Origin: Candidatus Omnitrophota bacterium
GTDB taxonomy: Bacteria > Omnitrophota > Gorgyraeia > JAGLLT01
Length of the DNA stretch: 64,000 nt
NCBI GenBank assembly: GCA_030632085.1
Contig: DAOVJY010000002.1
Coordinates: 13,325 to 77,324 of the forward strand
Direction: 5' to 3'
In this document: positions 5,595 to 47,948 of the stretch, piece after piece
How the letters are laid out: each line of letters begins with the position of its first letter
Position numbering within the stretch: the first letter of the stretch is position 1
The notes under the pieces: generated by a model
What the model was told of the DNA's origin: nothing
Seen by the model: only the letters and a program-made list of their open reading frames with translations
Databases searched by the model: none
Program-made: the position numbers and the translations under genes

Positions 5595-6495
5595 AAAATT
5601 TTCAGATTATTTAAAGGAGCGTTTTAACGAACGTGTTTATAAGGTGAGTGTGGATGCCGGTTTTTCGTGTCCTAATAAAGATGGCAAGTTTTCAGATGAG
5701 GGTTGTATCTTTTGTGATAATAGAACCTTTAATGCTTATTTCGGAAATCAACGAATACCCATAAAAGAACAAATCTCAAACGGCATAAAGTTTGGCAGTT
5801 CCCGCTATAGAGCAAAAAAGTTTTTAGTTTATTTTCAGGCGAATACTAATACCTATGCTTCAATAGATGAGTTAAAGAAAATATATGATTCTATAAATGA
5901 GTTTGATGATGTCGCGGGCCTTATGATTGGAACCAGGCCTGATTGCATAGATAATGAAATTTTAGATTTAATTGAAAGCTATAGTACTAAATATGAAGTC
6001 TGGCTGGAGTATGGTTTACAGAGCATGCACGACCAGACCTTAAAATTAGTTAACAGAAACCATACCTATAAAGATTTCCTTAAAACTTATAATTTAACAA
6101 AGAATAGAAATATTAAAGTTTGCCCCCATGTTATTTTAGGCTTGCCGCATGAAACAACCGCGGAAATGCTTGAAACTGCCAAAGAGATGGCGCGGCTTAA
6201 ACCGGATGCCATCAAAATACATCCCTTACATATAGTAAAAGATACTAATTTAGAAAAACTCTATAAAGAAGATAAATTTAAAATGTATTCATTGGGTGAA
6301 TACTATGATTTATTAATTAATTTTTTAAGATACCTGCATCCTGAGACTATAATCGCCCGCTTAACCGCGGATTGCCCCAGGAAATTACTAATAGAACCCC
6401 AATGGCTTGAAGAAAAAGCAAGATTTATCCAGCTCTTAGATAAAGAGATGGACGAAAGAGGAATTTTTCAGGGAGATTTATATAAAGGGATGTAG
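5572..6495 (+). CDS. radical SAM protein, TIGR01212 (YhcC-like) family
   Basis: 307 aa. Cys cluster CPNKDGKFSDEGCIFCDN near the N-terminus and overall similarity to the TIGR01212 family. It overlaps the mnmG 3' end by 23 nt. Confidence 0.75.
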   Translation: MFPKARYKKFSDYLKERFNERVYKVSVDAGFSCPNKDGKFSDEGCIFCDNRTFNAYFGNQRIPIKEQISNGIKFGSSRYRAKKFLVYFQANTNTYASIDELKKIYDSINEFDDVAGLMIGTRPDCIDNEILDLIESYSTKYEVWLEYGLQSMHDQTLKLVNRNHTYKDFLKTYNLTKNRNIKVCPHVILGLPHETTAEMLETAKEMARLKPDAIKIHPLHIVKDTNLEKLYKEDKFKMYSLGEYYDLLINFLRYLHPETIIARLTADCPRKLLIEPQWLEEKARFIQLLDKEMDERGIFQGDLYKGM

Positions 6496-8688: not shown

Positions 8689-8695
8689 GAAGCTG

Positions 8696-8723
8696 GATTA
8701 AGAATTAAGGATTAAGGATTAAG
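8696..8723 (+). repeat. tandem heptad repeat (G/A)ATTAAG x4
   Basis: gattaag aattaag gattaag gattaag sits directly after the guaA stop. The same module recurs at 39310-39337. Confidence 0.8.
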
Positions 8724-9945: not shown

Positions 9946-11370
9946 ATGCCCAAGCCTAACGAAAAAGTTCATATGCTTACTCAGGATGTCCAAAAGAGAA
10001 AGAATAATTTTGATGAAGTAGCTCTCGGCCTTACTGAAGAACTAGCCGTAAATGAAGCTCAAAGATGCTTAAACTGTAAAAAGCCTCTTTGTATGCAAGG
10101 CTGTCCGGTAGGTATTAATATACCTGAGTTTATTATGCTTATTAAAGAGCGTAATTTTTTAGAGGCGGCCAGAGTAATAAAGAAGGAAAACCTGCTTCCG
10201 GCTATATGCGGCAGGGTTTGCCCGCAGGAAGACCAGTGCGAGAAGGCTTGTGTGCTTGATAGGACAGGCAAGGCTATTGCTATCGGCTATCTGGAAAGGT
10301 TTGCAGCCGATTATGAAATGAAAAATAGTCCGCAAAAAAGAGAAAATGGAGCCATCAGCCATCAGCCATCAGCCATCAGCCCACAGCAATGTAAAATTGC
10401 TGTAATCGGTTCCGGCCCATCCGGCCTTACATGTGCCAGCGAACTTAGAAAGAAAGGCTATCAGGTAACACTTTTTGAAGCCTTTCATAAGCCGGGCGGT
10501 GTTTTAATGTATGGTATTCCGTCATTCAGGCTGCCCAAAGATATTGTTAATTATGAAATAGATAATCTGCGAAAAATGGGAGTTGAAATAAAGGTAAACA
10601 GTGTTATAGGCAGGTTGAAAACAGTAGATCAGCTTATTAAGGATGAAGGCTACAGCGCGGTTTATATAGCCACGGGAGCCGGCCATCCTGTTTTTATGGG
10701 TATCGCGGGAGAAGAGCTTAATTATATCTATTCTTCAAATGAATTTTTAACCCGGGTTAATTTAATGGAAGCCTATAAGTTTCCGGAAGTGGATACACCT
10801 GTTGTTTTGGGTAAGAAAGTTGCTGTAATCGGCGGCGGCAATACAGCTATGGATTCAGCCAGGTGCGCGCTGCGCATGGGTACTGAAAAAGTGTACTGTA
10901 TTTACAGGCGTTCTGAGAAAGAGATGCCGGCCAGAGTTGAGGAGATTGAGCATGCCAAGGAAGAGGGTATAGAATTTATGTTTCTTACCGCGCCGGTTAA
11001 ATATATAGGTGATAGCGATAATAATGTTAAAAAAGCAGTTTGCATAAAAATGGAATTAGGCGAGCTGGATGATTCAGGAAGAAGAAGGCCGATTCCCATT
11101 GAAGGCAGCGAATTTGAAATTGAGGTAGATTCGGTAGTTGTTGCCATTGGCACTAATGCTAATCCTCTAATTTCTGATACGACTAAGAATATGGAAGTCA
11201 ATAAATGGGGTTATATTGTGACTGATGAGGCAGGCAGGACTACCAAAAAACGAGTCTACGCCGGAGGGGATATTGTAACCGGTTCAGCCACAGTTATTAA
11301 GGCTATGGGAGCCGGTAAAGAAGCCGCCCATGTAATAGATGAGGATTTGAAAAATCTTGATAGAAAATGA
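9946..11370 (+). CDS. nfnB: glutamate synthase small-chain-like NADPH oxidoreductase subunit (NfnB/SudA/GltD family)
   Basis: 474 aa. Two N-terminal 4Fe-4S Cys clusters (CLNCKKPLCMQGCP, CGRVCPQEDQCEKAC) and FAD/NAD Rossmann motifs (IAVIGSGPSGL, VAVIGGGNTAMD). Confidence 0.85.
   Translation: MPKPNEKVHMLTQDVQKRKNNFDEVALGLTEELAVNEAQRCLNCKKPLCMQGCPVGINIPEFIMLIKERNFLEAARVIKKENLLPAICGRVCPQEDQCEKACVLDRTGKAIAIGYLERFAADYEMKNSPQKRENGAISHQPSAISPQQCKIAVIGSGPSGLTCASELRKKGYQVTLFEAFHKPGGVLMYGIPSFRLPKDIVNYEIDNLRKMGVEIKVNSVIGRLKTVDQLIKDEGYSAVYIATGAGHPVFMGIAGEELNYIYSSNEFLTRVNLMEAYKFPEVDTPVVLGKKVAVIGGGNTAMDSARCALRMGTEKVYCIYRRSEKEMPARVEEIEHAKEEGIEFMFLTAPVKYIGDSDNNVKKAVCIKMELGELDDSGRRRPIPIEGSEFEIEVDSVVVAIGTNANPLISDTTKNMEVNKWGYIVTDEAGRTTKKRVYAGGDIVTGSATVIKAMGAGKEAAHVIDEDLKNLDRK
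10352..10386 (+). repeat. in-frame heptanucleotide tandem repeat (gccatca x3) inside nfnB
   Basis: gccatcagccatcagccatcagcccaca encodes AISHQPSAISPQQ in the linker between the ferredoxin and FAD domains. Confidence 0.7.
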
Positions 11371-26196: not shown

Positions 26197-26427
26197 ATGC
26201 CATTTGGAGACGGTACAGGGCCAGGAGGCCAGGGAGCAGGTAGAGGAAGAGGAGCAGGTAGAGGCGGCGGTAGAGGCCGTATGGGTGGTAACAAGCCCGG
26301 CGCGGGGCCGAGCGGATATTGTGTCTGCCCAAATTCTAAATGTGATGGTAAACTTGTTCATCAAGCGGGTATACCATGTTATGAACTAACTTGTCCTAAA
26401 TGCGGGGCACGCATGGTAAGAGGATAA
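26197..26427 (+). CDS. DUF5320-like Gly/Arg-rich protein with C-terminal zinc ribbon
   Basis: 76 aa. MPFGDGTGPGGQGAGRGRGAGRGGGRGR... followed by CVCPNSKC...CPKCG. Confidence 0.5.
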   Translation: MPFGDGTGPGGQGAGRGRGAGRGGGRGRMGGNKPGAGPSGYCVCPNSKCDGKLVHQAGIPCYELTCPKCGARMVRG

Positions 26428-26671
26428 TTTCCGGGACTAAATCTTCGGAATTTCACAGCGTGAAATTCCAGAGGGTCTGACAATTTTGCGACTCTCGGCG
26501 GAATTAATTCATCCTGCCATTATGGAACTCATTAAGGAAATCAATAGACTCCTCGCTTAAATAAAGGTAAATTTTCTTCGACAATTTACCTTTAAGCTTC
26601 GGAGTTAATTCTGGTCTATCATTTACAACAATGAAGTTGGTGTAAATGATGCCCTCATTAAGGAGAGGTAA
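26428..26671 (+). promoter_or_regulatory. long structured leader: degenerate module copy, then palindrome AAAGGTAAATT-N9-AATTTACCTTT, TTAATTC, hairpin and anti-SD/SD
   Basis: Perfect palindrome GGAATTTCAC-AGC-GTGAAATTCC at 26445-26467. 11-bp perfect inverted repeat at 26563-26593 (spacer ttcttcgac). ttaattc at 26605-11. Hairpin 26618-26650. gccctcattaaggag at 26651-65. ATG at 26672. Confidence 0.5.
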
Positions 26672-28015
26672 ATGAAAAAGACGGATGTTTTGGTTGTTGG
26701 AGGAGGCCCGGCTGGCATTATAAGCGCGGTTACAGCCCGCAGGTATTATCCGGAAAAGGAAGTCAAACTGATTAAATCGGTAGATAAAGGAGTTATTCCC
26801 TGCGCCATACCTTATATGTTTTACAGTTTGAAAAGTCTTAAAGAAAATGCCCAGGGCAACGCGCCTCTTGAAAAGAATAATGTTGAAGTAATAGTTGATG
26901 AAGTTACAAAAATATCACCTGATAAAAAGTGTGTTACAACTAAAAAGGGAGAAGAGTATCAGTATGACAAGTTAATAATGGCGATGGGTTCAGAGCCCGT
27001 TATTCCTCCTATCTCCGGAGCGGACAAAGAGAACGTCTTTGCTATCTATAAAGATATGGAATACTTAGAAAAGCTTGCTGAGAAAATAAAAGGGTTTGAG
27101 AATGTGCTTATTGTGGGGGGAGGATTTATCGGAATAGAGTTTGCTGATGAACTGTCCTGCCGTAAAGAGTTTAACGTATCTTTAGTAGAGATGCTGCCTT
27201 CTATTTTGAGCCAGTCTTTTGATGCTGAATTTTCTGCTCCAGTCAAGGAAAGGCTGGAAAAAAAGGGCGTGAAGCTGTTAACAGGTGTAGTTTTAGAGGA
27301 AATTTTGGGTGAAGAAAAAGTTGAGGGAGTTAGATTATCAGGTAATAAAAAAATAGACGTAGATTGCGTTATTTTTGGTATTGGGGCTTCGCCCAACACT
27401 AAAGTAGCTCAGGAAGCTGGAATAGTTATAAATAAAGGCAAGGGAGTATGGGTTGATGAGTATATGAGGACGTCAGAGCCGGATATTTTTGCCGTTGGCG
27501 ACTGTGCCGGCAAAAGAGATTTCTTTACCCGTAAGGGGACGGCGATTTTACTTGCCTCAACAGCTACGGCAGAAGCTAGAATCGCGGGCGCCAGCTTATA
27601 TAAGTTAAAGTTGATTAGGGAGAATAAAGGGACCATTGCCATTTATTCCACCCGTATTGACGGCCTGGTTTTAGGGTCGGCGGGGATGACTGAAGATAGC
27701 GCTAAGAAGGAAGGGTTTGAAGTTGTAACCGGCCTGGTAGAAGGTGTTGATAAACATCCCGGGACTATGCCCGAGGCAAGCAAACTAATGGTTAAGCTTA
27801 TCTTTTCAAAGCAGTCGGGAATTATTTTGGGAGGACAGGTTGCCGGAGGTATGAGCTGCGGTGAGCTGATAAATGTTATCGGGGTTGCTATACAGCAAAG
27901 AGTTTCCTTGAATGAATTTGAAACTTTGCAGATGGCTACTCATCCATGTCTGACCGCGGCTCCCACAAAATATCCTTTAATCATCGCGGCCCAGAATGCT
28001 TCAAGTAAGATGTAA
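26672..28015 (+). CDS. FAD-dependent pyridine nucleotide-disulfide oxidoreductase, NADH oxidase/CoA-disulfide reductase family
   Basis: 447 aa. VLVVGGGPAGI FAD motif, redox Cys in GVIPCAIPY (the Nox/CoADR SxxxC-xxPY region), a second Rossmann fold VLIVGGGFIGIEFA, and GDCAG. Confidence 0.85.
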   Translation: MKKTDVLVVGGGPAGIISAVTARRYYPEKEVKLIKSVDKGVIPCAIPYMFYSLKSLKENAQGNAPLEKNNVEVIVDEVTKISPDKKCVTTKKGEEYQYDKLIMAMGSEPVIPPISGADKENVFAIYKDMEYLEKLAEKIKGFENVLIVGGGFIGIEFADELSCRKEFNVSLVEMLPSILSQSFDAEFSAPVKERLEKKGVKLLTGVVLEEILGEEKVEGVRLSGNKKIDVDCVIFGIGASPNTKVAQEAGIVINKGKGVWVDEYMRTSEPDIFAVGDCAGKRDFFTRKGTAILLASTATAEARIAGASLYKLKLIRENKGTIAIYSTRIDGLVLGSAGMTEDSAKKEGFEVVTGLVEGVDKHPGTMPEASKLMVKLIFSKQSGIILGGQVAGGMSCGELINVIGVAIQQRVSLNEFETLQMATHPCLTAAPTKYPLIIAAQNASSKM

Positions 28016-38600: not shown

Positions 38601-39283
38601 ATATCGGCTATGGCGGTTTGGATCATGTGCTGGCTTGCGGAAAAAATGTAAATGTTCTGGTGCTGGATACGGAAGTATATTCAAATACAGGCGGGCAGAT
38701 GTCTAAAGCTACTCCTATGGGAGCTGTTGCTAAGTTCGCGGCTGCCGGCAAGCCGATATTTAAAAAAGACCTGGGTTTACTGGCTATGGCTTACGGTAAT
38801 ATTTATGTGGCCAGGATAGCTATGGGTGCTAATCCGGCTCAAGCGATAAAGGCTTTTGTTGAGGCTGAAAGTTACGACGGCCCTTCGATTATTATAGCTT
38901 ACAGTCACTGTATAGCCCACGGAATTAATATGACTAAAGGTATGGAGCAGCAGAAAAAAGCTGTCGCTTGCGGTTGCTGGCCGTTAATAAGATTTAACCC
39001 TGATCTTTTAAAAGAAGGTAAGAATCCTCTACAGCTTGATTCGAGGGAACCTAGTATACCTCTGGAGGATTACATTTATAATGAAAACAGATTTAAAACT
39101 CTTAAGAAATCCAACCCTCAAAGGGCTAAAGAATTATTAGACTTGGCTCAGCATGAGGTTAATTGCAGATTCAAGAGATATCAATATATGGCTAAGATGG
39201 ATTGTTCTCAAGAAACAAGTATAAAGTCATCAGTCATACCCTTTCGGGCACAGGCAAGTCACAAGCAAGAAGCAAATAGCTAA
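35624..39283 (+). CDS. nifJ: pyruvate:ferredoxin (flavodoxin) oxidoreductase, single-polypeptide NifJ/Por type
   Basis: About 1219 aa from the ATG at 35624 (the ORF-track start at 35597 is an upstream TTG). Ferredoxin-domain Cys motifs (CIQCGQCSLVCP, CTGCGACVNICP), TPP domain GGDGWAYDIGYGGLDH. The last about 20 codons are derived from the intergenic repeat module. Confidence 0.93.
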   Translation: MASKMKTMDGNTAAAYIGHATNEVIAIYPITPSSGVGEMADAKSAKGEVNIWGQVPTVSELQSEAGAAGTVHGALTAGSMTTTFTASQGLLLMIPNMHKIAGELTPAVFYVTARTVASHALSIFCDHSDIMAVRSTGFAILSGSSVQEVMDLALVAQAATLESRVPFVFTYDGFRTSHEIQKIEEIDFASMKSLIKNEYLRSHRLRGLNPERPVLRGTSQNPDVFFQERETVNAYYDKCPQIVEDVMKRFKEVVGREYKLFEYVGAPDAERVILIMGSAAETVHEAVDYLVAQGEKVGVLKVKLFRPFSIEHFIKALPASVKKIAVLDRTKEPGALGEPLYLDARSAIGEAMEKGIATLKEYPVIVGGRYGLGSKEFTPAMVRGVFDNLSLDKNKIKNHFTVGINDDLTHTSLEYNAEFSTEDPDTFRGIFYGLGSDGTVGANKNSIKIIGELTDNYVQGYFVYDSKKAGSKTVSHLRFGKHLIRGTYLISKANFVACHNFSFLEKYDVLGAAEDKATFLLASPFSKDEVWDKMPIEVQKQIIDKKLKFYVIQAYKLAGEIGLGVRINVIMQTAFFAISEVIDKNKAVEAIKDAIIKSYGKKGESVVNMNNQAVDKALEAIEEVIVPKEATSKIKIPAAVPDEAPEFVKNVTAKIIVDKGDELPVSAFPKDGTFPTATSQYEKRNIAINIPEWDPEICIQCGQCSLVCPHAAIRMKMYDKKLLDKAPVTFKHMQAKGKDLEGKALTIQVAPEDCTGCGACVNICPITRKDKDNKPTGRKALNMVPQIDRRLKEKDNFTFFLSLPDMKAEDLPVGIGTLKGSQLMRPLFEFSGACAGCGETPYVKLLSQLFGDRALIANATGCTSIYGGNLPTTPYCVRNDGRGPAWSNSLFEDNAEFGFGMRLAVEQLSEKAKLLLKDVAEKISDKKSLIDEIITTSQITHDEIDKQRFRIEELREALKKFSSEAKVAELLEILDYLVKKSVWILGGDGWAYDIGYGGLDHVLACGKNVNVLVLDTEVYSNTGGQMSKATPMGAVAKFAAAGKPIFKKDLGLLAMAYGNIYVARIAMGANPAQAIKAFVEAESYDGPSIIIAYSHCIAHGINMTKGMEQQKKAVACGCWPLIRFNPDLLKEGKNPLQLDSREPSIPLEDYIYNENRFKTLKKSNPQRAKELLDLAQHEVNCRFKRYQYMAKMDCSQETSIKSSVIPFRAQASHKQEANS

Positions 39284-39500
39284 TAGCTAAGAGCAAAGGG
39301 CAAACACAGGATTAAGGATTAAGAATTAAGGATTAAGTAAAAAACAAGATACAAAAAACAAGTACAAAGTCACAAGACACAAGTTGTAAGTCACATGACA
39401 TAAGTCACAAGTAAAAAACAAAAACAAAAGAACAAAAAGATAAGACACAAGAAATAAGTTATAAGTCATACCCTTTCGGGCACAGGCAAGACACAGGTCA
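39232..39500 (+). repeat. modular A/C-rich intergenic repeat locus 2 (modules D, A heptads, B decamers, C A/C tracts, D)
   Basis: agtcataccctttcgggcacaggcaag at 39232-58 (inside the PFOR 3' end) and again at 39464-90. Heptads gattaag/aattaag at 39310-37. aagtcacaag / aagacacaag decamers. caaaaacaaaagaacaaaaaga tracts. Almost T-free on the + strand. Confidence 0.8.
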
Positions 39501-39526
39501 CAAGAAACAAAAAAGTAAAGATGTCC

Positions 39527-39649
39527 CTTGCTTAAACAAAGGTAAATTCTCTTTGACAATTTACCTTTAAGCTTCGGGATTAATTCGGGCTTATCATTTA
39601 CGACAGCGAAGCTGACGTAAATGATGCCCTCATTAAGAGGAGGGTTTGT
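39527..39649 (+). promoter_or_regulatory. conserved cis-module copy 2: palindrome AAAGGTAAATT-N9-AATTTACCTTT, TTAATTC, hairpin, anti-SD/SD
   Basis: Inverted repeat at 39538-39568 with spacer ctctttgac (contains TTGACA). ttaattc at 39580-86. Hairpin 39593-39625 with compensatory changes relative to copy 1. gccctcattaagaggagg. ATG at 39650. Confidence 0.55.
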
Positions 39650-39838
39650 ATGAAAGCTGTAGTAATTAAAGATTTATGTACCGGTTGCGGCCTTTGTGTC
39701 AGCACCTGTCCTGATGTTTTTGAAATGGTTGGTGATGTAGCGGAAGTTAAAGGAGATGTTGTACCTGAAGCCGCCGAGGATACCGCGAAAGAGGCTACTC
39801 AGAATTGTCCTGTAGAGGCCATAACCATCGAAGAATAG
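39650..39838 (+). CDS. fdx: 4Fe-4S ferredoxin (single-cluster type)
   Basis: 62 aa. CTGCGLCVSTCP plus the distal Cys in NCPVEA. Confidence 0.85.
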   Translation: MKAVVIKDLCTGCGLCVSTCPDVFEMVGDVAEVKGDVVPEAAEDTAKEATQNCPVEAITIEE

Positions 39839-42546: not shown

Positions 42547-42667
42547 AAATAAGTCACAAAAGATAAGTCATAAGTCACATGACACAAGTCACAAGACAAA
42601 TAGCTAAGAGCAAAAAACAAAAGAACGAAAAACAAAAAACTAAAAAAAACAAGAAATTGAACTACTC
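42547..42667 (+). repeat. modular A/C-rich intergenic repeat locus 3
   Basis: aagtcacaaaagataagtcataagtcacatgacacaagtcacaagac, then aaatagctaagagc, then caaaaaacaaaagaacgaaaaacaaaaaactaaaaaaaacaag. Same modules and order as locus 2. Confidence 0.8.
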
Positions 42668-42760
42668 CTTGCTTAAACAAAGGTAAATTATCAAAGAGAA
42701 TTTACCTTTAAGCTTCGGAGTTAATTCTCCGCCTAAGGCGGATCATTAAGGAGTATAACA
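42668..42760 (+). promoter_or_regulatory. conserved cis-module copy 3 (palindrome with inverted spacer, TTAATTC, GC hairpin, ATCATTAAGGAG)
   Basis: aaaggtaaatt (42679-89), atcaaagag, aatttaccttt (42699-709). The spacer is the reverse complement of copy 2's. ttaattc at 42721-27. Hairpin tccgcctaaggcgga. tcattaaggag. ATG at 42761. Confidence 0.55.
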
Positions 42761-43921
42761 ATGGAATTTTCCAAAAGAGCGCAAGTCATAATGGCCTCTC
42801 CGACTTTAGCCATTACTTCCAAGGCTAAAAAAATGAAGGCGGATGGAGAAGATGTGGTAAATTTTGCCGCCGGGGAACCGTTTTTTGATACACCCGATCA
42901 AATCAAACAGGCAGCTATCGAGGCCATTCAAGAAGGTTTTACTAAATATACGCCGGCAGCCGGAGCACCATTTTTAAAGAGGGCTATTTGTCAGAAGTTT
43001 AGGAATGATAACGGTATTGATTATGATGAAAATCAAATTGTTGTTTCCTGCGGAGCTAAACATTCTTTGTTTAACATTATGGAAATTCTCTGCGATGAAA
43101 AGGATGAGGTTATTTTTTCCGCTCCTTACTGGGTAAGTTACCCGGAGATGGTAAGGTTTGCGGGGGGCCAACCCATAATAATAAAGACATTAGAAAAAAA
43201 CGATTTTAAATTTAAAGCGGATACCTTAAGAAAATATATTACTAATAAAACTAAAATACTTATTTTAAACAGTCCTTCCAACCCCACGGGAGCGATGTAT
43301 ACTCGAGACGAATTAGAGGAAATTGCCGAAGTGGCTGTAAAGAATAATCTTTATGTTATCAGTGATGAAATATATGAAAAGATAATTTATGGTAGCAAAA
43401 AACATGTTTCTATCGCTTCTTTAGGTAAGGACATTTATAAGCGAACTATTACGGTAAATGGTGTTTCAAAGACTTATTCTATGACAGGATGGCGTATTGG
43501 TTATTTAGGGGCACCTGAAGCTATAGCTTCCAAGATTAAGAATTTGCAGAGTCATTCAACTTCAAATCCCGCTTCTATCAGCCAGAAAGCGGCTTACGCG
43601 GCTTTAAGTTGTGATGAGTCTATAATCGGAAATATGGTTTCTGAATTTAATGTAAGGCGCAAGTTAATGGTTAAAGGCCTTAATTCGGTTAAGGGATTTT
43701 CATGTAAATCACCCGACGGGGCTTTTTATTGTTTTTGCAATACAAGAGAAACTAATATGAATTCTATGGATTTGGCTAATAAGCTTTTAAAGGAACAAAA
43801 AATAGCGGTTATTCCCGGTATAGCTTTTGGCCAGGAGTATTATTTAAGATTCAGTTTTTCGTGTGACACTGAACAGATTGAAAAAGGGATATCCAGATTG
43901 AGGGAGGCATTCGCGAGCTAA
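42761..43921 (+). CDS. aspC: aspartate/aromatic aminotransferase (class I PLP)
   Basis: 386 aa. Overall AAT-like similarity with PLP-Lys in the NGVSKTYSMTGWRIGY region and NSPSNPTG. Confidence 0.88.
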   Translation: MEFSKRAQVIMASPTLAITSKAKKMKADGEDVVNFAAGEPFFDTPDQIKQAAIEAIQEGFTKYTPAAGAPFLKRAICQKFRNDNGIDYDENQIVVSCGAKHSLFNIMEILCDEKDEVIFSAPYWVSYPEMVRFAGGQPIIIKTLEKNDFKFKADTLRKYITNKTKILILNSPSNPTGAMYTRDELEEIAEVAVKNNLYVISDEIYEKIIYGSKKHVSIASLGKDIYKRTITVNGVSKTYSMTGWRIGYLGAPEAIASKIKNLQSHSTSNPASISQKAAYAALSCDESIIGNMVSEFNVRRKLMVKGLNSVKGFSCKSPDGAFYCFCNTRETNMNSMDLANKLLKEQKIAVIPGIAFGQEYYLRFSFSCDTEQIEKGISRLREAFAS

Positions 43922-45179: not shown

Positions 45180-45679
45180 GATTAAAAAGCCGGGCCATTA
45201 GACTCAAACAGGATAATGATGTTAATACTGATTATATAATTTCAGGCCGGTATAAATTCCAAATTCAGGATCCTAAGGAATTAGCTAAATATGTTTTTAA
45301 TGATCTGGAACCGGATTTTTTAAAAAGAACCGGCGGCAGAAGTATTATTATAGCCGGTTCTAATTTCGGCTGCGGTTCATCAAGAGAACAAGCACCTTTG
45401 GCTCTAAAATACGCGGGCATAAAAGCGATTATTGCCAAAAGTTTTGCTCGTATTTTTTATCGTAACGCTTTCAATCTGGGTATTATACTTATTGAAGCTG
45501 AGACTGACGATATTGCCGATATGGACGAACTGGAATTAGATTTAGACGCGGGTACATTAAAAAATACAACTAAAGACTTTGAAGTTAAATTTAACCCTTT
45601 ACCTGAATTTATGGAAGAGGTTATCAGAGACGGTTCAATAGTAAAGTACTTTAATAAACATGGAGGATTTCAGTTTTGA
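45176..45679 (+). CDS. aconitase-family small subunit (LeuD/HacB-like)
   Basis: 167 aa. Swivel-domain motifs [17 protein letters not shown] and [17 protein letters not shown]. Overlaps the large-subunit gene by 4 nt. Confidence 0.85.
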
Positions 45680-46758
45680 GTAAATATAAAATTACACTTA
45701 TACCGGGAGACGGCATAGGGCCTGAAGTCAGTGAAGCCGCTAAAAGATGTATTGACGCGACTAAAGTAGATATTGAATGGGAAATTGTTGAAGCGGGCAG
45801 CGCGGTTATTGAAAAAGAAGGAACTCCTTTGCCGGATAGTGTTATTGAGTCGATAAAGAAAAATAAAATTGCTCTAAAAGGGCCAATAGTAACCCCGGTG
45901 GGTACCGGTTTTCGTTCGGTTAATGTGGCGTTGAGACAGAGGCTTGATTTATACAGTTGTCTCAGGCCATGCAAAAGTTATGCAGGGCTTAATATACCCT
46001 ATAGTGACGTTGATTTAGTGATTGTAAGAGAAAATACGGAAGACCTCTATGCCGGTATAGAGTTTGAAGAAGGCCGGAAGGAAACTTTGGAGCTTATTGA
46101 AAAAATAGAGCAATTATCATCTAAGAAAATACTCAAAGATTCCGGTGTAAGCATAAAGCCCATTTCAGAGACGGCAACAAAGAGAATCGTAAAGTTCGCT
46201 TTTGAATATGCCCTAAAAAATAACAGAAAGAAAGTGACGGCTGTTCATAAGGCCAACATTATGAAATTTTCCGACGGTTTATTCTTAAGAGTGGCCCAAG
46301 AGGTTGCCGGGGAATATGAAGGCCGTGTGGAATTCACTGAAAATATAGTTGACAATTTATGCATGCAGCTTGTTTTGAGGCCGCATAATTTTGATGTTTT
46401 GGTTTTACCTAATCTTTACGGAGACATTATTTCCGATTTATGCGCCGGCTTAGTGGGAGGCTTAGGTTTAGCTCCGGGGGCAAATATCGGTGACGATTGT
46501 GCTGTTTTTGAGGCTACGCATGGCTCAGCTCCGAAATATACGGGTTTAAATAAAGTTAATCCTGTGGCCATGATTCTCTCCGGTGTTTTAATGCTAAAGT
46601 ATCTTAAAGAAGACGCGGCGGCAGATAAGCTTGAGAACGCGGTTAAAGAGATTATCTCTGAGGGTAAATCAGTTACTTATGACTTAAAAAAAGATAGGAA
46701 TGATCCTTCGGCTGTCGGAACCAGCCAAATGGCGGATGCGATAATTGAGAAGTTATAA
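45676..46758 (+). CDS. isocitrate/isopropylmalate dehydrogenase family NAD(P)-dependent beta-decarboxylating dehydrogenase
   Basis: 360 aa. The [13 protein letters not shown] region and the [10 protein letters not shown] motif. Confidence 0.85.
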
Positions 46759-47024
46759 GGCTATCAGCTGGCAGCTAAACAAGTCACAAGTCATACCCTG
46801 GTGGGCACAGGCAAGACATAAGTCACAAGTAAAAAAATAAAAACAAACAAATAAGATGCAAGAAACAAGTGCAAAGTCATACCCTGGTGGGCACAGGCAA
46901 GACATAAGTCACAAGATAAATAGCTAAGAGCCAAGAGCTTAGAGCTAAGAGCAAAAAACAAAAACAAAAGAACAAAAAGACAAAAAGCTGAAGGCTAATA
47001 GCTGAAAGCAGAGAGCTGATAATT
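46759..47024 (+). repeat. modular A/C-rich intergenic repeat locus 4 with two identical 41-nt direct repeats
   Basis: agtcataccctggtgggcacaggcaagacataagtcacaag at 46789-46829 and again at 46875-46915 (100% identical). aaatagctaagagc. caaaaacaaaagaacaaaaaga. It runs up to the mdh ATG, with no palindrome or leader module. Confidence 0.85.
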
Positions 47025-47948
47025 ATGAAAATTGGCATTATTGGAGCGGGAAATGTTGGCTCGACTTTAGCTTTTAAAATTTTAAATGATAATCTGGCTG
47101 ATGTAGCTTTAGTTGATATAAACGCTGATTTAGCCATAGGCAAAGCCCTTGATTTAAATGATGCGTCAGGCGTTTTCGGGTTAGACAAAAAAGCTGTTGG
47201 CAGTGACTCTTATCAAGTAATTGAAGACGCGGATTTGATTGTTGTTACCGCCGGCTTTCCCAGAAAACCGGGAATGAGCCGGGAAGACCTGCTTCTGAAG
47301 AACGCGGGTATAATTAAAGAGGTTATAACCAAAATAAAAAAAGTTAATTCGAAGGCTATAATTATCATGGTGACTAATCCTTTGGATGTAACAACTTACC
47401 TGGCTTATAAGGTAAGCGGTTTTGATAGAAAAAGGGTTTTTGGGATGGCTGGCGTTCTTGATTCAGCCAGGCTGGCAGTTATCCTTTCGGAAGAACTAAA
47501 AAAAGATTTAGCCGATATAAATTCAATGATTTTAGGTACTCACGGTGATTCTATGGTGCCCTTAAAAAGTAAAATTATTATTGAAGATAAAAATGTTCTG
47601 GAAATAATCGACGAACCCGCGGTTGACGCTCTCCTGGAAAAAGCCAAAACTCAGGGCGGCAGGATAGTTGCTCATCTTAAAGGCGGCAGTGCTTACTACG
47701 CTCCGGCTACGAGCGTTTATAAAATGATTGATGTAATTGTAAATGACAAAAAAGAAATTCTTCCTGTTTCGGTTTATTTAGAAGGTGAATACGGCCTTAG
47801 CGATGTTTGCCTGGGTGTGCCGGTGAGACTTTCAAAAAATGGAATAGAGGAAATAATCGAGGTTGACTTGACGCAGGCGGAAAATAACAAGCTAAAAAGC
47901 GCCAATGAGGTTATAAAATCCGGAATAGCTAAAGTTATGAATGTTTAA
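47025..47948 (+). CDS. mdh: malate dehydrogenase (LDH-like MDH family)
   Basis: 307 aa. KIGIIGAGNVGS Rossmann fold, GFPRKPGMSR, NPLDV, and the HGDSMVP catalytic His region. Confidence 0.9.
   Translation: MKIGIIGAGNVGSTLAFKILNDNLADVALVDINADLAIGKALDLNDASGVFGLDKKAVGSDSYQVIEDADLIVVTAGFPRKPGMSREDLLLKNAGIIKEVITKIKKVNSKAIIIMVTNPLDVTTYLAYKVSGFDRKRVFGMAGVLDSARLAVILSEELKKDLADINSMILGTHGDSMVPLKSKIIIEDKNVLEIIDEPAVDALLEKAKTQGGRIVAHLKGGSAYYAPATSVYKMIDVIVNDKKEILPVSVYLEGEYGLSDVCLGVPVRLSKNGIEEIIEVDLTQAENNKLKSANEVIKSGIAKVMNV

Follow-up and report, generated by a model that had tools for sequence, protein, structure and literature searches.

Two identical repeats upstream of mdh in an Omnitrophota bacterium: probable copies of a dispersed 25-nt unit within a heptamer-array insertion

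Small dispersed repeats (SDRs) and arrays of tandem heptamers have been described for decades from cyanobacteria and giant sulfur bacteria, with, to our knowledge, neither mechanism nor function established. The repeats SDR1-8, described by Elhai et al. in 2008 from Nostoc punctiforme and its relatives, are said to be 21-27 nt long, to occur in many dispersed copies and to form a small predicted hairpin; they reportedly lie embedded in tandem heptamers, beside miniature transposon-like elements and in genes, and may be nested or joined head-to-tail. We know of no enzyme that moves them. Here we describe two identical direct repeats in a 64,000-nt stretch of Candidatus Omnitrophota bacterium (GenBank assembly GCA_030632085.1, contig DAOVJY010000002.1, positions 13,325 to 77,324; hereafter the window), where they lie in the spacer between a gene of the Iso_dh family and the malate dehydrogenase gene mdh. 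We consider it probable that the repeats are copies of a dispersed unit of about 25 nt residing in a heptamer-array insertion, that the spacer is a gene-less derivative of a cassette resembling the intervening sequences of ribosomal RNA (rRNA), and that this DNA is locally copied and selfish or neutral.

One report (PMC5861425) places SDRs in Nostocaceae only. MacGregor 2015 (PMC4679880) records TAACTGA repeats in Beggiatoaceae, Cyanobacteria, and Bacteroidetes, the forward orientation directly 5' of start codons, where the arrays give stop codons in all frames, and the reverse orientation in open reading frames (ORFs) or at ORF ends; the distribution is described as patchy across phyla, and horizontal transfer is suspected with no evident mechanism. 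That paper contains none of the terms "four helix", "intervening sequence", and "S23", and no hairpin unit was noted in the parts consulted. ORF-bearing intervening sequences of 23S rRNA, e.g., that of Coxiella burnetii, end in inverted repeats that RNase III cuts, carry an S23p ORF, and vary between strains in their number of tandem heptamers (PMC4990558).

The first-pass annotation of the window had reported two identical 41-nt direct repeats, and an exact-match search confirmed them. The 41-mer AGTCATACCCTGGTGGGCACAGGCAAGACATAAGTCACAAG occurs at 46789-46829 and at 46875-46915 on the + strand, and no third copy was found in the window even at 3 mismatches (shuffled expectation, 0). The maximal identical tract is one base longer on the left, i.e., 42 nt (46788-46829 and 46874-46915). 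The distance of 86 nt given in the annotation is the period from start to start and not the gap, which is 45 nt. The tract lies within a broader repeat of 58 nt with 91% identity (46777-46834 vs 46863-46920), and all five mismatches of the latter fall outside the 42 nt (P ~0.001 under random placement). The 5' contexts, AAACAAGTCACAAG and AAACAAGTGCAAAG, were as annotated, whereas the 3' context aaatagctaagagc applies to copy 2 only, copy 1 being followed by TAAAAAAATAAAAAC. The annotated ccc-tggt-ggg element and its cccTTTCggg variant are both present, the core of the variant (ACCCTTTCGGGCACAGG) at 39238 and 39470. The components of the spacer are as follows; L038 is a relative described below.

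46759..47024, + strand: whole spacer, 266 nt, a lineage-specific insertion with 47% A and 14% T on the sense strand
46759..46776, + strand: left arm GGCTATCAGCTGGCAGCT, TCAGCTA-type heptamers, common to the left end of the L038 insert
46788..46829, + strand: 42-nt identical tract, copy 1 (41-mer plus one base), by exact match
46791..46815, + strand: 25-nt unit, copy 1, TCATACCC-TGGT-GGGCACAGGCAAG, by pattern match
46830..46873, + strand: A-rich stretch between the copies, occurring once; together with copy 2, homologous to 39402-39505
46874..46915, + strand: 42-nt identical tract, copy 2, by exact match
46877..46901, + strand: 25-nt unit, copy 2, loop TGGT, by pattern match
46916..46952, + strand: AGCTAAG-type heptamer array, period 7, 4.4 copies at 46922-46952 (tandem repeats finder)
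46953..46980, + strand: 28-nt A-rich module AAAAAACAAAAACAAAAGAACAAAAAGA, identical to 39413-39440
46986..47024, + strand: right arm AGCTGAAGGCTAATAGCTGAAAGCAGAGAGCTGATAATT, adjoining the mdh ATG, common to the right end of the L038 insert

The 25-nt unit TCATACCC-N4-GGGCACAGGCAAG occurs four times in the window, always on the + strand and always within heptamer arrays. Each locus has its own private loop, TGGT in both copies at 46.8 kb and TTTC in both copies 7.5 kb upstream. We searched public sequences with the pattern CATACCCNNNNGGGCACAGGCAAG, a 24-nt core with 20 specified bases; the surroundings of the matches were read in pieces of 8 kb, and those of the window copies in its 64 kb. The core was found at 33 loci in 185,579 species genomes (one genome per species), where about one match is expected by chance (our own estimate, 2 x 596e9 / 4^20), and at 26 metagenome loci, which gives 59 public loci (designated below by L numbers). 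No core match was found in viral contigs. A 3-4-bp CCC/GGG stem, which the pattern itself demands, is invariant in the collected copies, and relaxed searches added few copies. The four loop bases vary freely among the public loci, and TGGT occurs in none of the 59. Because this loop is common to both units of the spacer and is seen nowhere else, the two units appear to have been copied locally. The identity over 42 nt and the private loop also bear out the recent duplication proposed in the annotation. The repeat is, however, not a private duplication, as it belongs to a dispersed family of ~25 nt that extends over several phyla. The freshly copied piece is probably the 25-27-nt unit and not the 41-mer, of which the other 14 nt are heptamers (ACATAAG TCACAAG) that recur at 39397-39411 without an upstream unit.

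At least 11 metagenome-assembled genomes of Omnitrophota contain the unit with AAGTCAC, AAGCCAC, or AAGGTCAC heptamers on either side, and in several of these loci deletion of the 25 nt restores the heptamer array. In regards to Solirubrobacterales (~70% G+C, some of the loci on megabase long-read contigs), the unit lies within arrays of related 12-14-nt units (GCAYACCC-N4-GGG, GCACAGGCAAG). The other hosts are Clostridia, Syntrophomonadaceae, Planctomycetia, Auribacterota, and UBP3, and the flanks of the unit are host-like across the loci. Several copies are located in genes. In hisF of L020, the unit falls exactly at 6 residues that are extra relative to solved HisF structures, and further in-frame units are present in hisF of L054, a folC-like ORF (L014), a transaldolase-like ORF (L063), and an rpoC-like ORF (L005), the names being taken from translations only. 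Head-to-tail doublets of the unit occur in L006 and L066. The unit lies on the sense strand in roughly four-fifths of the low-GC loci, a figure that is partly inflated because stop-free sense arrays lengthen stop-to-stop ORFs.

Some of these loci deserve separate mention. At ~2950-3080 of L005 (minus-strand orientation), an array of heptamers, unit, and AAAACCG repeats lies in frame in the beta-prime-like gene (...ITTTVGRVLFNQVLPEGF...); in parallel, MacGregor 2015 (PMC4679880) notes a beta-prime-like ORF in which repeats derived from TAACTGA occupy a variable loop. In L012 and L018 (Solirubrobacteraceae), the unit is located at an orthologous gene junction, where the end of the upstream ORF (...CACAGGCAAGTGA) overlaps the ATG of an aroE-like gene. 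The loops at this junction are TGAC and CGAC, respectively, and the copy was therefore kept through speciation while its loop drifted. L064 consists of the 5' part of the L054 hisF up to the unit, followed by the downstream sequence of L071, which reflects either a chimeric assembly or a real recombination. In L017 (59-82, - strand; Auribacterota) and L033 (4028-4051, + strand; UBP3), the 24-mer lies in an orthologous conserved non-coding stretch and is preceded by GGTTAAAGTCCGGGC. The string AAAGTCCGGGC before the motif in these two loci resembles P4 of RNase P, a candidate that Rfam did not confirm, the loci ending within ~90 nt of the motif. The high-GC matches L001, L004, and L024 represent one orthologous coding site and were not counted as evidence, since they may be coincidental or stem from an old copy within the gene.

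Comparison with relatives provides a wider context that the annotation missed: the whole spacer is a lineage-specific insertion with inverted heptamer arms. L037, a Logan contig from another sample, is 97.4-99% identical to the window in the flanking genes (98.5% in mdh) and has ~20 nt between them; the C-terminus of its upstream protein differs from that of the window. L039-L046, with 78-82% DNA identity, have 21-25 nt between the genes, and the order Iso_dh then mdh is common to all relatives. L038 (~90% identity), a sister species, has an insert of 471 nt at the orthologous place, and its two ends match those of the window (left, gagaagttataaRgctatcag...; right, aaaaagctgaagg...gRgctgataaWtATG). 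The L038 insert codes for a 119-aa four-helix-bundle protein of PF05635/TIGR02436, the "23S rRNA intervening-sequence protein", which scores 128 bits with PF05635 (cut-off 33.8) and 124 with TIGR02436 (cut-off 24). Because the spacer has the same ends as the L038 cassette at the same site, it is probably a gene-less derivative of a PF05635 cassette. The insert has replaced the native ribosome-binding region of mdh, which reads AAAGGTAAAATAATTATG in L037 vs GCAGAGAGCTGATAATTATG in the window.

The two arms are complementary. The left arm begins at the stop codon that closes the Iso_dh-family gene. In the right arm, the heptamers (TAGCTGA type: AGCTGAA/GGCTAAT/AGCTGAT) match the left-arm type in reverse complement. 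The right-arm array stops 4 nt before the mdh ATG and places stop codons in all frames just ahead of it, with few sense-strand stops before. Homologues of the L038 protein were found on the long Omnitrophota contigs L073, L074, and L075, each wedged between two co-directional genes, with (AGCTATC/AGTCGTC/AGCCATC)n on the left flank and (AGCTGAT/AGCTGAA/GGCTGAG)n on the right flank, the latter ending just before the next start codon. The arms of L038, L073, L074, and L075 form 26-38 pairs, and the duplexes of the last three have energies of -41 to -66 kcal/mol. In the window, the arm duplex has 22 pairs and -24.5 kcal/mol, compared with -10.2 +/- 2.9 kcal/mol for 500 shuffles, none of which was as good. 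The fold of the whole spacer gives z = -2.9 because the spacer ends pair. The sense RNA duplex of the arms was more stable than the antisense duplex in all five cassettes (window, L038, and L073-L075), which is a weak hint that the arm stem matters at the RNA level.

We propose that one of the two units served as template for the other, the identical heptamers on the flanks guiding either gene conversion or a slipped or template-switch event during replication. Such local, homology-guided copying would explain why the two are perfectly identical and why their loop is private. The host probably tolerates the cassette, as it would be transcribed through within the operon, with no terminator and few sense stops before the right arm. 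By analogy with rRNA intervening sequences, the RNA stem of ~20 bp formed by the arms would be open to cutting by RNase III. The DNA would be selfish or neutral and not a regulator required by mdh. We take the repeats most likely to be filler DNA of a selfish kind and not regulatory, and a regulatory role essential to mdh is unlikely because a near-identical strain is without the spacer. The insert may have an effect on mdh translation, the native ribosome-binding region having been replaced.

Several points weigh against this interpretation. The window and L038 are filled, whereas the closer relative L037 is empty, and this distribution needs an old polymorphism, transfer, or insertion at the one site more than once. 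That 20 bases stay nearly invariant across phyla is hard to reconcile with passive slippage or conversion alone and suggests sequence-specific recognition. The arm stem of the window is imperfect, with internal loops among its 22 pairs, and cleavage of the arms by RNase III is proposed by analogy with intervening sequences of rRNA (PMC4990558). No PF05635 gene was found in the window by tblastn or with the family hidden Markov model, and among the 59 motif loci only L053 has one, 9 kb off; the link between unit and cassette therefore rests on the shared heptamer arms and one orthologous site. Furthermore, the copy number and arrangement of the repeats rest on one short-read assembly.

The sequence constraint on the unit is what an alternative explanation takes as its starting point. 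In this view the 25-nt unit would be a non-autonomous micro-element with active mobility, its conserved sequence being recognised by a dedicated trans-acting enzyme or ribonucleoprotein that inserts it at AAG^TCA-like heptamers, and the two copies would be two insertions from a neighbouring donor and not products of slippage or conversion. The invariance of 20 bases across phyla around a free 4-nt loop, the head-to-tail doublets in L006 and L066, and the in-frame units within unrelated genes are consistent with this explanation, and removal of the unit restores a perfect AAGTCAC array in several loci, where AAG(N)CA on both sides resembles a target duplication. Precedent comes from SDR5, which, according to PMC4390886 (citing Elhai 2008), goes precisely between bases 3 and 4 of HIP1 in Nostocaceae. 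However, the flanking "duplication" would equally be left by homology-guided copying between heptamer arrays, and no filled/empty pair for a single unit was found between close relatives. No candidate enzyme was found either: all-against-all clustering of ORFs over the 59 loci returned only target genes (hisF) or orthologous neighbourhoods, so that a mobilising gene beside the motif was rejected, and a phage origin was rejected with 0 matches in viral contigs. We regard this explanation as unlikely. A broader proposal combines this mobility with the cassettes. The unit would belong to a cross-phylum class of ~25-nt mobile modules that home into heptamer arrays and into genes in frame, travel with intervening-sequence-like cassettes, the inverted arms of which would allow processing of the host transcript around them, and are moved by machinery reading the 20 bases. 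We put this forward tentatively and find it somewhat doubtful. The machinery might be linked to PF05635 (Avd-like) proteins or to an RNA intermediate, the latter of which would fit the sense bias.

We also considered whether the spacer or its units act in cis as RNA for mdh or the operon, i.e., as a processing site that uncouples the cistrons, as an mRNA-stability hairpin, or as an A-rich heptamer leader that draws in the ribosome and replaces the Shine-Dalgarno sequence. The insert took the place of the native ribosome-binding region, its right arm adjoins the start codon, the units and arrays are mostly sense-oriented, the sense stem is stronger than the antisense stem in 5/5 cassettes, and heptamer repeats alter the expression of recF and recO in Nostoc (bioRxiv 10.1101/2022.06.06.494920). 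On the other hand, the spacer is missing from the ~98% relative and from all of the 78-82% relatives, so mdh does not need it, and unrelated genes have the same units in their coding regions and past their stop codons. Folding of the unit, whether or not flanks were included, was no better than that of shuffled sequences (z -0.3 to -1.2), and covariation gives the stem no support, as it is invariant among the collected copies. Rfam gave nothing relevant for the window and 15 loci at the gathering threshold or for L017 and L033 at E <= 1. A function of this kind is quite improbable. A tRNA or tmRNA origin was not found, a sigma-54 site was rejected because GGGCAC-N5-AG misfits the -24/-12 spacing (by eye), and neither a promoter-like (sigma-70) nor an intrinsic-terminator-like site was found in 46500-47200. 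The motif strings gave only chance primer matches in the searchable literature.

The two-copy structure could instead have arisen in assembly, by collapse, false duplication, or a chimeric join at the repeats. The window record is a scaffold of a short-read metagenome assembly (ENA ZHAN22-2_SAMN18200499 scaffold_7), an independent Logan contig presumed to come from the same sample (L035, SRR13892601) begins at 46954, inside the spacer, and at least one public contig with the motif, L064, looks chimeric at the repeat, joining the 5' part of the L054 hisF to the downstream sequence of L071. Against this, the two copies differ in their flanks on both sides and enclose a unique 45-nt stretch, they span 127 nt together, which 150-nt reads could cover if the library has such length, and the Logan break lies in the 28-nt module (repeated at 39413) and not in the 41-mer. 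The order of Iso_dh and mdh is the same in all relatives, and the architecture of units and arrays recurs in many independent assemblies, including long-read chromosomes (OY969791.1). We consider an artefact very improbable. A minimal or degenerate CRISPR array of two repeats and one spacer is hardly credible: a repeat of 41-42 nt and a gap of 45 nt are within the CRISPR size ranges, but there are two copies only, with no third in 64 kb, and the flanks are heptamer arrays. Elsewhere, the core is single or head-to-tail without spacers, in genes, and in many genomes, and no recognised cas gene is among the Pfam families listed for genes within ~6 kb on either side.

The element resembles each of the systems described above in part. 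In regards to SDRs, the unit has a similar length (25-27 nt vs 21-27 nt) and is dispersed, with four copies in the window and 59 public loci. A small hairpin is predicted for it, all four copies in the window and most Omnitrophota copies are embedded in AAGTCAC-type heptamers, a structured element of ~120 nt adjoins two of the window arrays, copies occur inside genes and head-to-tail, and no enzyme was found. In contrast, its hosts are Omnitrophota, Solirubrobacterales, Clostridia, Planctomycetia, and others, compared with Nostocaceae only for SDRs, and its hairpin is 3-4 bp with an invariant stem that shows no compensatory changes. In the genome scan, which used the core, no exact match fell in a record named cyanobacterial. 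In regards to mobility of the SDR type, empty sites are seen for the whole spacer, and the insertion in HisF is implied from solved homologues; for a single unit, no such pair was found between close relatives. The likeness to TAACTGA repeats is in position: the right arm ends by the mdh ATG, the left arm lies at the upstream stop codon, and the reverse type, as (ATCAGCC)x4, occurs in frame in an ORF (9946-11370). The heptamer differs from TAACTGA by one or two bases (TAGCTGA/AAGCTGA), and forward and reverse arrays are paired here as inverted arms around a cargo.

With rRNA intervening sequences, the cassettes share a PF05635 ORF as cargo (L038, L073, L074, and L075) and complementary termini that form a long stem, with 22 pairs in the window and 26-38 in the gene cassettes compared with 20-30 bp or more in the intervening sequences. 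They differ in being located between protein genes of an operon and not in helix 25 or 45 of 23S rRNA, the window having no match to rRNA or any other Rfam family, and the window copy has lost, or never had, the S23p/PF05635 ORF. REP/REPIN elements, which RAYT transposases mobilise (PMC3116915, PMC3733652), are likewise short (20-40 nt), extragenic, hairpin-forming, highly repeated, and non-autonomous. The unit differs from these in having no GTAG/CGTC tag, a stem of 3-4 bp instead of a long imperfect palindrome, four direct copies in the window with no inverted doublets, and in-frame copies in genes. Rickettsia palindromic elements are selfish repeats tolerated in frame in protein genes, and mycobacterial MIRUs lie between operon cistrons in sense orientation. 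Unlike the unit, both are 40-150 nt long, lineage-specific, and without heptamer arrays. The element thus fails at least one defining feature of SDRs, TAACTGA repeats, and rRNA intervening sequences, and is better described as a variant of this kind of element than as a member of any of these groups.

The locus offers three handles on such repeats. The same 24-nt core, with 20 specified bases, is found in both Omnitrophota and GC-rich Actinomycetota. Near-identical strains differ clearly in whether a site is filled or empty. At an orthologous site, one pair of arms surrounds a PF05635 gene in one case and nothing but repeats in the other. Should the pattern be true genome-wide, it would tie together three unexplained phenomena, namely small dispersed repeats, heptamers 5' of start codons, and how rRNA intervening sequences arose, and would provide a defined sequence for hunting the responsible enzyme. 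In practical terms, the units break or mis-join metagenome assemblies and give rise to false ORFs and to false C-terminal extensions of real genes.

Heptamer-filled spacers (AAGTCAC, AGCTAAG, AGGATTA, and A-rich AAAAAC-type) occur in the window at 8695-8723, 39249-39458, 42549-42655, and 46779-46987, and AAGTCACAAG-like decamers number 18 in the window vs 2.6 expected. The features related to the mdh spacer are as follows.

39234..39258, + strand: sister unit, loop TTTC, in the array replacing the 3' end of the pyruvate:ferredoxin oxidoreductase gene
39466..39490, + strand: sister unit, loop TTTC, by pattern match
42547..42660, + strand: heptamer and A-rich array without the 25-nt unit, with modules in common with 46918-46973

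A block of 104 nt (family D6) is 79% identical, without gaps, between 46813-46916 and 39402-39505, and the AGCTAAG-type array at 46916-46952 has exact stretches of 14-21 nt in common with 42598-42622. Judged by their sequence, the spacers of the window are mosaics of common modules, because the 104-nt block, the 28-nt module, and the heptamers recur between the loci. The other two window arrays are likewise missing from relatives. At 39215-39283, the pyruvate:ferredoxin oxidoreductase gene has lost its last codons to the array, into which the ORF extends, giving 1228 aa compared with 1200-1201 aa in relatives and a false or altered C-terminus. GGA-rich AGGATTA/GGATTAA arrays at 8695-8723 and 39308-39337 are each followed by a AAGTAAAA... 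module, and one of them begins 7 nt past a stop codon. Heptamers of the reverse-arm type, (AGCCATC)x4.6, lie at 10350-10387 on the sense strand and in frame, leaving the ORF 9946-11370 unbroken.

The window has a G+C content of 38%, and all of its non-nested ORFs of >=100 aa are on the + strand. The gene downstream of the spacer (47025-47948) passes the malate dehydrogenase model NF004863, in agreement with the annotation as mdh. The upstream gene (45676-46758), annotated as an isocitrate dehydrogenase (IDH), is of the Iso_dh family; its best models are isocitrate dehydrogenases, with scores under the curated cut-offs. The minus-strand ORF below had been called an artefact, and we reached the same result: it has no Pfam or NCBIfam match, its translation is of low complexity, and it overlaps the mdh start. 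Minus-strand ORFs across the spacer gave no match in either database.

46877..47188, - strand: 103-aa ORF, a by-product of the repeat composition and not a gene

A second, unrelated repeat of ~100-130 nt has the organization CCTTGCTTAAACAAAGGTAAATT-loop-AATTTACCTTTAAGCTTCGG..TTAATTCGGG..hairpin..GCCCTCATT and occurs in the window at 26548-26674, 39523-39653, and 42664-42763, and in relatives at 1938-2053, 5856-5981, and 13800-13928 of L039 and at 1938-2047 and 5848-5975 of L043. On the + strand, it directly precedes the ribosome-binding site of genes. L039 has the repeat, and the same sites of L040 do not, though the MDH proteins of the two are identical. Changes on both sides with pairing kept were observed in 9 of 29 predicted pairs, and Rfam gave no match. 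The repeat looks like a mobile structured 5'-leader module.

A small unannotated ORF was found at 26198-26427, within a "spacer" of 502 nt. The N-terminus of its product is rich in Gly and Arg (GPGGQGAGRGRGAGRGGGRGR), a motif of four cysteines (CVCP...CPKC) comes after it, and the 18-nt tandem repeat of this spacer is the coding low-complexity region of the ORF.

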